Below are positions 32,147-35,489 of a stretch of DNA of 64,000 nucleotides, piece after piece. Position numbers and translations under genes: made by a program. The DNA comes from Fidelibacterota bacterium (lineage in GTDB: Bacteria; Fidelibacterota; UBA2242). Below the pieces are notes generated by a model. That model was not told where the DNA came from. It was given only the letters and a program-made list of their open reading frames with translations, and made no database searches. The stretch covers positions 1,513-65,512 of the forward strand of contig JBNGDF010000012.1 of NCBI GenBank assembly GCA_049975265.1. Reading direction: 5' to 3'. Position 1 is the first letter of the stretch, and the number at the start of each line of letters is the position of its first letter.

Positions 32147-32292
32147 TTATAGCCATACCGGGGAGTTGCGGTATTATTGCGCAATATTTCGGTCGATTTA
32201 TTGACAATTAATGATATTTTTTAAAACGGGGCTTGATTTTAATGATAATGTTAAGTATTTTGAGTCGAATTTTTGAGCGAAGGGGCGAATCG

Positions 32293-32553
32293 ATGAAAAG
32301 AAAAATTGTACGAGTTGGTGCAAGTCTTTGTATACTATTACCCAAAGACGTGATTAAAACGATGGATTGGGACTTTGGCGATCCCATCGACCTGATCCTG
32401 GATGAAGAGAACGAGAAGGTGGTTCTGCGCAATCCCCCCGAAGAGGAGCCGAAGCAGAAAACCTATCTTGAGGAATTCAATAGTTTTCTGGAAGATTACG
32501 GCGGCGTTTTGGAACAGATTGACGCTGACGAAGAAGTAAGCAATCGAGGTTGA
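32293..32553 (+). CDS. AbrB/MazE-type (SpoVT-AbrB swapped-hairpin) antitoxin-like protein 1
   Basis: MKRKIVRVGASLCILLPKDVIKTMDWDFGDPIDLILDEENEKVVLR fits a MazE/AbrB swapped-hairpin domain. The real start is internal to track ORF 32233. RBS AAGGGG. TTGACA -35-like box upstream. Confidence 0.55.
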   Translation: MKRKIVRVGASLCILLPKDVIKTMDWDFGDPIDLILDEENEKVVLRNPPEEEPKQKTYLEEFNSFLEDYGGVLEQIDADEEVSNRG

Positions 32554-32554
32554 T

Positions 32555-32797
32555 ATGCAGCGAAAAATTATACGGGTAGGATCCAGCCGGGGCGTACTGC
32601 TGCCGAGGGAAGTAACCAAAGCCATGCACTGGGATTTCGGAACAGAGGTCGATCTGGATGTAGACAAGGATCGCAGGGAGGTTACCCTGAAAACCATCAA
32701 GGTCAGCCTGCCGGACGATTATGAAATGGAACATCTGCGGGGTATTGAAGAGCGATTAATGATGCATGCCGATCTGCTGGGAGGTATCGATGACTGA
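32555..32797 (+). CDS. AbrB/MazE-type antitoxin-like protein 2 (paralog of upstream gene)
   Basis: MQRKIIRVGSSRGVLLPREVTKAMHWDFGTEVDLDVDKDRREVTL is about 50% identical to gene 1 over the swapped-hairpin domain. There is a 1-nt gap to gene 1. RBS GAGG. Confidence 0.55.
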   Translation: MQRKIIRVGSSRGVLLPREVTKAMHWDFGTEVDLDVDKDRREVTLKTIKVSLPDDYEMEHLRGIEERLMMHADLLGGIDD

Positions 32798-33188
32798 TGA
32801 TCAGAAAAGAGAACTGAAGTTGCTCTGCTATGTCAATTGGATGATGGCAAAAAAGTTCGAAGATGAATACGGGATTCGTGATCTTGACAAGCTGAAAAAC
32901 GTGGTGGAGCTGCCGGGCGGCGGTTCGCTGACCAGTTTTTTAGGCGAGCGGCTCTCCAATCGCCGCGATCTATATTCCCAGCTGGGTTGGTTTGTCTACT
33001 ATATGATAGACGGCGAACCGTTTATCACCAGAAACCGTGCGATGGTGCTGTTGATGCTGATCTGGACCCTGAGTTACTACCGGCTTGAATTTGATCTCGA
33101 GGCGCTGGCGGACTTTGTCGTTATGCTGGACCCTATGAAACAGGGGAATTCGGATATCTCCCTGTGGTTGTCGAATAACTGCCGTTAG
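32790..33188 (+). CDS. Doc/Fic-family-like protein with degenerate active-site motif (putative toxin or pseudo-toxin)
   Basis: Aligns end to end with P1 Doc: YG...P N-terminal region and ...LADFVV...GNSDISLW C-terminal region. The core motif is GEPFITRNRAMVLL versus Doc GHIFNDANKRTALN, so the catalytic His and Arg are lost. ATG overlaps the gene 2 stop (ATGACTGA). RBS GGAGG. Confidence 0.45.
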   Translation: MTDDQKRELKLLCYVNWMMAKKFEDEYGIRDLDKLKNVVELPGGGSLTSFLGERLSNRRDLYSQLGWFVYYMIDGEPFITRNRAMVLLMLIWTLSYYRLEFDLEALADFVVMLDPMKQGNSDISLWLSNNCR

Positions 33189-33220
33189 CCGCCGCAGTGA
33201 ACAACCGTTCTTGATGCAAA

Positions 33221-33253
33221 AAACACCTTCTGGGGCGAAGGTGTTTTTTTTTA
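33221..33253 (+). terminator. rho-independent terminator
   Basis: ACACCTTCTGGGGCGAAGGTGT hairpin followed by T9. Confidence 0.8.
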
Positions 33254-33277
33254 TATTTGTGAATTGAGGAGATTACA

Positions 33278-34990
33278 ATGAGCTTACAGAAAATGATCAT
33301 GGCGGCGCGGGGACAGGTGCCGGCTGATCTGCTGATTACGAATGTGCGGGTGATGAACCTGTTGTCCGGAGAGATTATTGAAACCGCTGTTGCGGTTTTT
33401 GCTGGCAAAGTTATCGGCTTTGGTGATTATGAGGCTGGGGCGACAATCGATGGCGAGGGAGCTTATCTGGCACCGGGACTCATTGACGGTCATGTTCATC
33501 TGGAAAGTTCAATGTTGGGTCCGGCGGAGTTTGCCAGAGCGGTGGTGCCGATGGGCACAACGGCGATTGTTGCCGATCCCCATGAAATCGTCAACGTCAT
33601 GGGTCTGGAGGGATTGAAATATCTGCTGGACGCCGGTATGGATTTGCCGCTGGAAATTTTCTTCATGCTGCCCTCCTGTGTTCCGGCGACTCATCTGGAG
33701 ACCTCCGGTGCGGTGGTTACCGCCGATGATATACGTACGTGGATTGACAATCCGCGTATTCTGGGTGTCGGCGAAATGATGAATTTCCCCGGAGTACTGT
33801 TCGGTGACCCGGCGGTGCTGGATAAATTGGCGGTAGCGGGTGCGAAAAGGATTGATGGTCATGCACCGCTGGTACGTGGCAGGGAATTGTCCGCCTACAT
33901 TGCGGCAGGCATCCGTTCCGACCACGAGAGCAGCGAGATTGAAGAGGCGCGGGAGAAGCTGCAAAAGGGGATGTTTCTCATGATCCGGGATGGTTCAGCA
34001 GCACGGAATCTGAAGGATTTACTACCGCTGGTTACGCCTCTGAATGCCCGCCACTGCGGCTTTGTCACCGACGACCGCCATCCCGATTTTCTGCTGGACT
34101 TCGGTCACATTAATTCCATGGTGCGGGATGCCATTGCGTTCGGGATCGATCCACTGATCGCCTTGCAGATGGCGTCTCTGAATACGGCACAGTATTTCGG
34201 ACTACGAACCAAAGGTGCCGTGGCACCCGGTTATGATGCGGACCTGATTTTATTCGATAATTTTGATAATTTTACGATTAAAAAGGTATTTAAAACCGGT
34301 CGCCTGGTGGCTGAGAATGGCGAGATTGTGCCGTTTAAAGCTCCCCGGACAGCAGCGCTGCCCCGGACGGTTCAAATTAAGGAAATGTCTCTGTCTGATC
34401 TTGTTATCAGACCTGAGCCGGCGTCGCAGGTCAACGCCATTGTCGTTGTCCCAAACCAGCTGATTACCAAAAAGGTGGTTCTGGAGTGTCGGGTTGCAGA
34501 CGGATGTGCTGTCAGCGATCCGGGGCGGGACCTGCTGAAAATGGCGGTGGTGGAGCGCCATCACGCCAGTGGCAATATCGGACTGGGATTTGTGCGGGGG
34601 CTTGGTTTGCAGGGCGGCGCGCTTGCCTCGACGGTGGCGCACGACTCGCATAATATTATCGTCATCGGCACCGACGACAGAGATATGCTGTTTGCCGTTA
34701 AGGAAATTCAAAGGATGGGTGGTGGGCAACTGGTCGTGAAGGACCAAAAAGTCCTGGCGGCGTTACCGCTGCCGATCGCTGGTCTGATGAGTGACAGACC
34801 GCTACTGGAGGTTCGTGCCGCAATGGATAAGGTCAATGAGAAGGCGCGCGAGCTGGGTTGCTCATTGGAAAATCCCTTTATGACGCTGTCGTTTCTGGCG
34901 CTGCCGGTGATCCCGGAACTGAAACTGACCGATAAAGGATTGGTAGATGTAACGAAGTTTGATTTTATCCCGCTGTTTGCAAAAAAATAG
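33278..34990 (+). CDS. ade: adenine deaminase
   Basis: 570 aa amidohydrolase. DGHVHLESSMLGP (HxH) plus the C-terminal adenine deaminase domain. RBS GAGGAG. Confidence 0.8.
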   Translation: MSLQKMIMAARGQVPADLLITNVRVMNLLSGEIIETAVAVFAGKVIGFGDYEAGATIDGEGAYLAPGLIDGHVHLESSMLGPAEFARAVVPMGTTAIVADPHEIVNVMGLEGLKYLLDAGMDLPLEIFFMLPSCVPATHLETSGAVVTADDIRTWIDNPRILGVGEMMNFPGVLFGDPAVLDKLAVAGAKRIDGHAPLVRGRELSAYIAAGIRSDHESSEIEEAREKLQKGMFLMIRDGSAARNLKDLLPLVTPLNARHCGFVTDDRHPDFLLDFGHINSMVRDAIAFGIDPLIALQMASLNTAQYFGLRTKGAVAPGYDADLILFDNFDNFTIKKVFKTGRLVAENGEIVPFKAPRTAALPRTVQIKEMSLSDLVIRPEPASQVNAIVVVPNQLITKKVVLECRVADGCAVSDPGRDLLKMAVVERHHASGNIGLGFVRGLGLQGGALASTVAHDSHNIIVIGTDDRDMLFAVKEIQRMGGGQLVVKDQKVLAALPLPIAGLMSDRPLLEVRAAMDKVNEKARELGCSLENPFMTLSFLALPVIPELKLTDKGLVDVTKFDFIPLFAKK

Positions 34991-35000
34991 AAGTCGAATG

Positions 35001-35489
35001 CTATTCGGTTTTCTCGAAGCGGTTCAGATCAACATTCTTGCGGGTGGAAAAGGGCTTAAATATCTGCCCGTTCATCGTCAGGTAAACTCCGTGAGGCAGG
35101 GTCTGGACGGCGGCTACTGCGCAGCCGATATTAAAGGCGGCATCACTGTTTTTAAACCGGGCGGGCTGCATGGAGCCGGTCAGAACGATCGTTTTACCCT
35201 GAATGGCGGATAATGTTTTGGCAGTCTCGATCATGGTGTCGGTGCCGTGGGTGACGATTATGAATTCATGGGGATCGGCGGCAATTTTATCGAGAACCAG
35301 TTGACGGTCAGTGTCGTCCATATCCAGACTGTCTTTCTGCATGACAGATTCGGTTTCAAAGTCGAAGGTCACGTTGGCTTCCTGCAGCACCTCAACGATT
35401 TTGGGATCGCCGACCTGGTAGGCGCTTTTCCGGTCGAAATAGATTTTGTCAATGGTTCCGCCGACGGTGAAAATTTTTATAAACGGCAT
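35001..35489 (-). CDS. asparaginase/glutaminase family N-terminal-domain protein
   Basis: FTVGGTID...IVTHGTDTM (the asparaginase TGGTIAG / hGTDT motifs) in only 162 aa. Confidence 0.5.
   Translation of the reverse strand: MPFIKIFTVGGTIDKIYFDRKSAYQVGDPKIVEVLQEANVTFDFETESVMQKDSLDMDDTDRQLVLDKIAADPHEFIIVTHGTDTMIETAKTLSAIQGKTIVLTGSMQPARFKNSDAAFNIGCAVAAVQTLPHGVYLTMNGQIFKPFSTRKNVDLNRFEKTE

Follow-up and report, generated by a model that had tools for sequence, protein, structure and literature searches.

A 64,000-nucleotide (nt) stretch of DNA from a Fidelibacterota bacterium (GenBank assembly GCA_049975265.1, contig JBNGDF010000012.1, positions 1,513 to 65,512 of the forward strand; hereafter the window) contains a compact module of three genes, orfA, orfB and orfC, in which two paralogous AbrB/MazE-like proteins precede a predicted Doc-fold protein with a non-canonical active-site loop (Table 1). 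The three open reading frames share one strand, with a 1-nt gap between orfA and orfB and an 8-nt overlap, ATGACTGA (32790-32797), between orfB and orfC; this gap and an overlap had been described in a first-pass annotation of the same DNA. As that annotation had stated, the module was located between rarA and an adenine deaminase gene, both flanks being identified by Pfam matches (RarA/MgsA, PF12002, 2.9e-66; adenine deaminase, PF13382, 5.6e-73). The terminator it had placed after the third gene was also recovered, as a hairpin with a perfect 13-base-pair (bp) stem (33218-33230 / 33237-33249) and a subsequent T-run, 30 nt past the orfC stop codon.

Table 1. Features of the orfA-orfB-orfC locus and adjoining genes (positions in the window; aa, amino acids)
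Feature	Position	Strand	Description
orfA	32293-32553	+	86 aa; AbrB/MazE N-domain (residues 1-47), acidic variable amphipathic tail
orfB	32555-32797	+	80 aa; paralogous AbrB/MazE N-domain, conserved acidic C-terminal helix, translationally coupled to orfC
orfC	32790-33188	+	132 aa; predicted Doc-fold protein, non-canonical active-site loop
orfC motif codons	33015-33041	+	E76-P-F-I-T-R-N82-R-A, replacing Doc HxFx(D/N)(A/G)NKR; register from hhalign
Promoter-like block	32232..32262	+	CTTGATTTT (32232-32240), 19 nt, TATTTTG (32256-32262)
orfA ribosome-binding site	32280-32285	+	AAGGGG
Intrinsic terminator	33218..33257	+	13-bp stem, 6-nt loop, T-run
Adenine deaminase gene	33278-34990		downstream neighbour of the triplet
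Asparaginase-like gene	35001-35489	-	162 aa

The AlphaFold model of orfC, built from an alignment of 35 homologs, had a predicted local distance difference test score (pLDDT) of 95.6 and a predicted template modelling score of 0.89, and consisted of six main helices and a short one. When this model was compared with the PDB by Foldseek, the top five matches were all P1 Doc chains (template modelling score, TM, 0.63-0.72; probability 0.99-1.0; 14-16% identity). The best of these were 3dd7 and 3k33 (TM 0.67-0.72, probability 1.0), and many Fic proteins came next. Judged from the predicted structure, orfC has a Doc fold. At the sequence level, no match to PF02661 (Fic/DOC) or TIGR01550 (DOC_P1) was found, even at E <= 1, and none to any other Pfam or NCBIfam model; comparisons with PDB chains, by single sequence or by profile, yielded only candidates at chance level (PsaD, E 0.55; a PH-domain protein, E 0.12), which were rejected.

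A search of 1.84 billion representative proteins with the orfC profile returned only seven matches. These comprised the family representative P0036, one fragment, four long repetitive proteins matched over short stretches (P0038, P0039, P0041 and P0042) that were rejected as spurious, and P0040, a protein of 130 aa matched along its full length (E 5e-5). P0040 is a canonical Doc protein (PF02661, 1.3e-18; TIGR01550, 4.6e-22) carrying the motif HPFLDGNKR, and hhalign aligned the orfC family with it at 96.6% probability (E 5.8e-10). Together with the Foldseek result, this alignment confirmed the Doc/Fic-like fold that had been proposed for the third protein.

In the hhalign register, E76 of orfC occupied the position of the His of P0040, P77 and F78 those of Pro and Phe, T80 that of Asp, R81 that of Gly, N82 that of Asn and R83 that of Lys; the last Arg of P0040 had no counterpart in orfC. 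A motif logo over 63 unique family sequences showed how far this replacement of the Doc consensus HxFx(D/N)(A/G)NKR (PMC4177925) is shared. Glu and Pro occupied the first two positions in 63/63 sequences and Phe the third in 62/63. Position 5 was Ser in 51/63 and Asp or Asn in none of the 63, position 6 was Lys or Arg in 59/63, position 7 was Asn in 63/63 and position 8 was Arg or Lys in 60/63, while position 9 was Ser, Thr or Ala and in none of the 63 Arg. The family motif thus reads E-P-F-x-S-K/R-N-R/K-[S/T], with EPFITRNRA as the copy in the window: Phe and Asn are retained, and the consensus His, Asp/Asn, Ala/Gly and last Arg are missing in 63/63. Register and logo therefore both upheld the earlier reading of this motif as one that lacks the catalytic His and the last Arg.

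In the orfC alignment as a whole, 26 columns were invariant, many of them polar (R30, R58, D60, Y62, Q64, E76, N82, D114, N120 and D122). Among the 1.84 billion representatives the family formed a single cluster at 50% identity, with no intermediates towards canonical Doc; in sequence space it stands as an isolated island, the next match being a canonical Doc at E 5e-5. On sequence grounds, a single cluster without intermediates is what would be left by rapid change that later came under constraint, as in neofunctionalisation.

Both small upstream proteins scored narrowly above the gathering threshold (24.7 bits) of the Pfam model MazE_antitoxin, PF04014 (orfA, 25.4 bits, 1.4e-5; orfB, 24.9 bits, 2e-5), and they shared 49% identity across their first 47 residues (E 1e-16), which bore out their description as two AbrB-fold paralogs. 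The best NCBIfam match of each was TIGR02609, doc_partner. In orfA it extended over residues 3-75 and profile positions 1-71 of 74 (32.9 bits, 6.4e-8), and in orfB it was confined to profile positions 1-46, the N-terminal domain (25.2 bits). Both proteins missed the curated cut-off of this model (55.9 bits, full length), a strict one, given that the AbrB partner of the canonical Doc P0040 itself reaches only 36.5 bits. An AlphaFold monomer of orfB (pLDDT 70) consisted of a beta-alpha-beta-beta half-barrel followed by a C-terminal helix (residues 58-75), and the best matches in a fold search with it were weak AbrB-like proteins (C56, Sso7c4; E > 0.3).

The N-domains of both paralogs were almost invariant across the clade, and they differed in charge (orfA -1.5, orfB +2.6). 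That of orfA (32293-32433) was acidic, with an invariant DLILDEE hairpin, and that of orfB (32555-32701) was basic, with an extra invariant Arg or Lys at position 12. This contrast may point to a heterodimer that is asymmetric, or to one paralog acting as a dominant-negative partner. The tail of orfA varied across the family, and that of orfB was conserved (P-x-D-Y..HL..IE....D-L-G-G-I-D-D). The acidic tail that had been noted for one paralog was indeed present in orfA (net charge -9), but it was not peculiar to it, the orfB tail being acidic as well (-7).

The gene context of P0040 provided a link between these paralogs and canonical Doc partners. Its gene is preceded, with a 4-nt overlap, by a gene for a 78-aa AbrB-type, doc_partner-like protein. 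To this antitoxin orfA aligned over residues 1-69, through the tail (E 2e-6), and orfB over its first 24 residues only. The premise that Doc normally pairs with a Phd/YefM antitoxin rather than with an AbrB-fold one was not sustained: AbrB is the most frequent partner of Fic/Doc, its 55 pairs being over three times as many as expected (PMC2701414), a description of mazE-doc composites dates from 2006 (PMC1626090), and TIGR02609 is itself a doc_partner model.

As judged from the sequences, the simplest history is that orfA keeps the ancestral tail pattern of canonical Doc partners and that orfB, the duplicate copy, carries a new one. The series would have begun with an AbrB(doc_partner)-Doc pair, in which the antitoxin gene was duplicated. 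The toxin-adjacent copy, orfB, which is the one translationally coupled to orfC, would then have gained its new, conserved helical tail, and the Doc loop would have been rewritten from HxFx(D/N)(A/G)NKR to E-P-F-x-S-K-N-R-[S/T] and subsequently frozen. The best reading of the locus is that of a chromosomally fixed, vertically inherited operon descended from an AbrB(doc_partner)-Doc type II toxin-antitoxin (TA) pair.

All named homologs of orfA, orfB and orfC belonged to Marinimicrobia (= Neomarinimicrobiota, Fidelibacterota), a phylum of the Fibrobacterota-Chlorobiota-Bacteroidota (FCB) group. When one genome per species was scanned, 30 loci were obtained, every one of them in metagenome-assembled genomes (MAGs) of Fidelibacterota or in unnamed MAGs; as two loci were pieces of one genome, they represented 29 species-level genomes with one copy each. 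Gene order was assessed in the loci with enough sequence, namely the window, 35 loci and five more distant ones. The order A-B-C was found in 41/41 complete loci, in answer to the question, raised in the first-pass annotation, whether homologs are always triplets; orfB was always 80 aa and the orfB/orfC overlap always 8 nt, and the length of orfA and the orfA/orfB gap ranged over 75-86 aa and 1-28 nt, respectively. In L007 (5378-5740) and L008 (322-684), orfA had been called as a protein of 120 aa; a start supported by homology gives 82 aa, and the longer calls probably represent an upstream false start.

The module occupied the same chromosomal site across species-level genomes, with conserved neighbour genes, and diverged in step with them. 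Identities to the window in locus L009, whose contig ends before adenine deaminase, were 94% for the beta-CASP gene product, 86% for RarA, 83% for orfA, 89% for orfB and 89% for orfC; in L001 they were 71, 69, 59, 69 and 58%, respectively, and 61% for adenine deaminase. Pairwise distances of orfC were correlated with those of both flanking proteins (adenine deaminase, r 0.84; RarA, r 0.79), and the mean divergence was equal. Ratios of nonsynonymous to synonymous substitution rates (dN/dS), calculated by the Nei-Gojobori method for unsaturated pairs, were 0.15 for orfA, 0.11 for orfB and 0.10 for orfC. Those of the neighbours were 0.05 for the beta-CASP gene, 0.11 for rarA and 0.15 for adenine deaminase.

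Adenine deaminase followed the triplet in 32/42 loci with downstream sequence. It was absent from L005, L006 and L027, where an asparaginase-like gene came directly after the triplet, and from L039-L043, where YitT and Usp genes did so; L004 was also among the loci concerned by its presence or absence at this site. These differences suggest that adenine deaminase was repeatedly gained or lost while the triplet stayed, and an obligatory functional link between the two was rejected because the triplet persists without the adenine deaminase gene.

A GC shift or direct repeats, for which a check of the flanks had been proposed, were not found: the cassette formed no GC island, the sole dip (0.41) being confined to the AT-rich intergenic promoter region, and no meaningful direct repeats flanked it. 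Searches of IMG/VR viral contigs, GenBank phages and PLSDB plasmids yielded no relatives of the module. With base composition, flanks and these searches all negative, a mobile island was rejected. A defence system was rejected as well, there being no PADLOC match and only weak PHROG matches to generic AbrB/antitoxin families. With one syntenic copy per genome, the module did not show the patchy, horizontal and mobile-linked behaviour typical of TA loci, whose chromosomal content is normally highly variable between isolates and horizontally acquired (PMC7167474; PMC2701414). Its occurrence at the same chromosomal site across species speaks for a repurposed module and against a TA system of the classical mobile kind. 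The first-pass annotation had named, as an observation that would refute its view, the presence of the module in relatives as part of a conserved housekeeping operon; conservation in relatives was found in the sense of synteny, at one site across species-level genomes.

Upstream of orfA, the TTGACA hexamer (32201-32206) that had been taken for the promoter did not hold up: a promoter scan found no acceptable -10 partner for it, and it was not kept in any relative in an alignment of the 160 nt before orfA (approximately 32 distinct upstream sequences). The sole conserved block in this alignment lies 30 nt downstream of the hexamer and consists of CTTGAtttt, approximately 19 nt and TAnnTT(T/G), with CTTG and TA..TT invariant. 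It was also present in the most distant clade (L039/L042). The arrangement CTTGA-N19-TAnnTT recalls the -33/-7 promoters of Bacteroidota (FCB type), to which class it may belong; within the window, TTGA-N18-20-TAnnTT was not clearly enriched (6 found, 3 expected), the pattern being a weak one. The AAGGGG ribosome-binding site was kept 7-12 nt ahead of the orfA ATG in nearly all loci. A direct repeat, TTAATGATAtttTT (32208-32221) / TTAATGATAatgTT (32239-32252), with a spacing of 31 nt, has one copy upstream of the CTTGA box and the other between that box and the TAnnTT box. In the window genome this repeat is a candidate operator; distant relatives do not conserve it as such.

The terminator was kept, with compensatory changes in its stem, in the nearer relatives L010-L013, L017, L019, L037 and L038. 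It was not evident in the distant loci, in which read-through into the next gene is possible. The earlier description of the triplet as an insulated cassette therefore applies to the nearer relatives but not to the distant loci. The only candidate for an RNA element, an Rfam match to the OrzO-P antitoxin RNA that overlaps the terminator hairpin (33219-33304, minus strand), reached 24.4 bits (E 0.54), below the gathering score of 60, and was judged to be due to chance.

Among the closest known systems are two-gene Doc modules. The AbrB/MazE-Doc composites (tasA-tasB of Bacillus thuringiensis pGI1; TIGR02609 + TIGR01550) share with the module an AbrB-fold gene directly upstream of, and overlapping, a Doc-fold gene; in addition, orfA aligns through its tail with the partner of a canonical Doc, and the fold and remote homology of orfC match Doc. 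They differ in having one antitoxin rather than two paralogs, in a motif whose His, Asp/Asn and last Arg are all absent from orfC, which with its partners misses both curated cut-offs, and in a patchy or plasmid-borne distribution, whereas the module is vertical and syntenic across its clade. P1 Phd-Doc has the same gene order, a small acidic partner followed by a Doc-fold gene, and its six-helix Doc core is shared by orfC (TM 0.67-0.72); regulation by a toxin-antitoxin-DNA complex would be a plausible inherited feature. Unlike in P1, the partner has an AbrB instead of a Phd/YefM fold, the kinase motif HIFNDANKR is not kept, orfC has a 6-residue insertion with invariant residues before helix 3, and the module is chromosomal and lineage-wide, not derived from a phage or plasmid.

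Diverged signature motifs on a preserved fold and loop conformation are also known from non-canonical Fido domains, such as those of Bartonella BepC and other Beps, Campylobacter fetus Fic2 and AvrB. BepC has no known enzymatic activity and acts by binding (PMC8401265), Fic2 is toxic and retains its His, mutation of which abolishes toxicity (PMC5651007), and AvrB lacks the motif altogether and has a different chemistry. These proteins are secreted effectors or larger Fic proteins, and Fic2 keeps its His; orfC, by contrast, is a minimal Doc-type domain encoded within a TA-like operon and invariably has Glu where the His would be. Three-component TA systems (paaR-paaA-parE, omega-epsilon-zeta, HipBST) resemble the module in their three-gene operons and in a potential division of regulator and neutraliser roles between two small proteins. 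Their antitoxin, however, has no DNA-binding domain and is not related to the regulator (PMC7167474, PMC10627512), and they sit on mobile elements (PMC7167474), whereas the two small proteins of the module are paralogs that both combine a DNA-binding domain with a tail. No description of a Doc-type domain in which Glu has become fixed in place of the His, of tandem AbrB antitoxin paralogs ahead of a Doc gene, or of a TA-derived module syntenic across a Fidelibacterota clade was found in the open-access literature.

The first-pass annotation had left three options: a new TA variant, a decayed one or a repurposed regulatory module. Syntenic vertical inheritance supports the last of these, and we tentatively favour a TA-derived module that has been adopted by its host, with a Doc domain that is rewired or no longer a kinase and that forms part of a host regulatory switch. 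Under this interpretation, a single promoter would drive an A-B-C transcript. The AbrB N-domains of orfA and orfB would form dimers, perhaps an A-B heterodimer, that bind DNA in or close to their own promoter, which would make the operon autoregulated. The acidic C-terminal helices of orfB, orfA or both may dock on orfC as Phd does on Doc. Deprived of its toxicity, orfC would no longer phosphorylate EF-Tu by the Doc mechanism; it may act as a non-DNA-binding partner, either a co-repressor or a ligand-sensing subunit, or as an enzyme of different chemistry, and the module as a whole would serve the host as a regulatory switch and not as an addiction element. Consistent with a loss of toxicity, Fic2 H184A and Fic3 H147A illustrate that toxicity requires the His (PMC5651007), and in PDB entry 3dd7 the inactive DocH66Y was used. 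A more specific version, for which our confidence is lower still, is that a Doc-type TA captured early in a Fidelibacterota lineage became a core regulatory device, in which DNA binding by a heterodimeric AbrB pair (acidic orfA and basic orfB N-domains) is controlled by a Glu-for-His Doc-fold subunit that senses a ligand or has a chemistry new to the Fido fold.

Several observations weigh against adoption as a regulatory switch. Glu could possibly act as a general base, and two basic residues flank the invariant Asn, so that catalysis, perhaps even toxicity, is conceivable. Some non-canonical Fic proteins are still toxic, as is C. fetus Fic2, in which the His is kept (PMC5651007), and some chromosomal TA systems are stably inherited. 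No operator palindrome common to the lineages could be defined in the upstream regions, where local dyads and repeats differ between lineages, and the sequence from the -7 element to the ribosome-binding site varies among lineages despite nearly invariant DNA-binding domains. Finally, the genome scan rested on two peptide patterns and gives no share of Fidelibacterota genomes that carry the module.

A working type II, tripartite TA system, in which orfC would be a toxin acting through Glu76 as general base or through target binding, orfB its coupled antitoxin and orfA a second antitoxin or a dedicated regulator, is the strongest competing explanation, albeit an unlikely one. The operon layout fits it, with small acidic DNA-binding proteins encoded upstream, an ATGA-type overlap with the Doc-fold gene, and a promoter and terminator of its own. 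Pro, Phe, Asn and a basic residue at motif position 8 have been retained, the non-canonical Fic2 is toxic (PMC5651007), and three-component systems exist (paaR-paaA-parE, PMC7167474; HipBST, PMC10627512). Yet the toxic Fic/Doc cases that were compared all depend on the catalytic His, which, together with Asp/Asn and the last Arg, is missing in 63/63 orfC sequences. Moreover, strictly vertical and syntenic inheritance in one copy per genome, at rates like those of the flanks and with no trace of a mobile element, is unlike typical TA loci (PMC7167474), and the module had no match in PADLOC.

Less probable still is an enzymatic role for orfC, in which a new housekeeping chemistry would act on a nucleotide-like substrate and might be tied to the adjacent purine salvage gene, with orfA and orfB simply as transcriptional regulators of the enzyme. 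The Fido fold is versatile, its chemistries including AMPylation, phosphorylation, phosphocholination and UMPylation (PMC4177925), and AvrB, which also lacks the motif, has a solved structure with bound uridine diphosphate (8twj). The many invariant polar residues around the loop (listed above) and the proximity of adenine deaminase, next to the triplet in 32/42 loci, point in the same direction. On the other hand, the triplet persists without adenine deaminase (L005/6/27, L032/33, L039-43) and in nearer relatives is parted from it by the terminator, a substrate could not be inferred, and an invariant coupling to an antitoxin-like protein is hard to reconcile with a plain enzyme. As for the decayed option, a TA remnant whose toxin was inactivated by mutation and whose genes are drifting towards loss is scarcely credible: the catalytic residues are gone and orfC falls below the curated Fic/Doc models, but all three genes have a dN/dS of about 0.1 (0.10-0.15, like the flanking genes), their reading frames are uninterrupted and constant in length across the 41 loci, and the promoter block is conserved, and at the sequence level decay is excluded because purifying selection is accompanied by an invariant replacement motif (Glu in 63/63).

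TA loci are usually regarded as selfish, mobile and patchy, and cases in which they became fixed and repurposed are few and mostly anecdotal. The present module offers a clean comparative example, with a traceable AbrB-Doc ancestry, a duplicated antitoxin and catalytic residues swapped for an invariant new motif, and throughout a clade of a marine phylum that is abundant but scarcely cultured it evolves as the chromosomal genes next to it do. Should orfC have no kinase activity, the module would show how the machinery of conditional cooperativity can be put to new use as a regulator; an active orfC would define a Glu-based Fido active site. If the early-capture scenario is true, the locus would clearly exemplify, in nature, how a toxin fold can become a regulatory or enzymatic component that is dedicated to its role and inherited vertically. 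In practical terms the impact is modest, as members of the phylum are difficult to culture and the module has no known function.

A minor irregularity concerned the upstream neighbour. In the MAG contig L036 (2185-3189), the RarA match was split into residues 1-150 and 288-439, only approximately 100 nt apart; the cause may be a deletion within the gene, masking of part of the sequence or faulty assembly.

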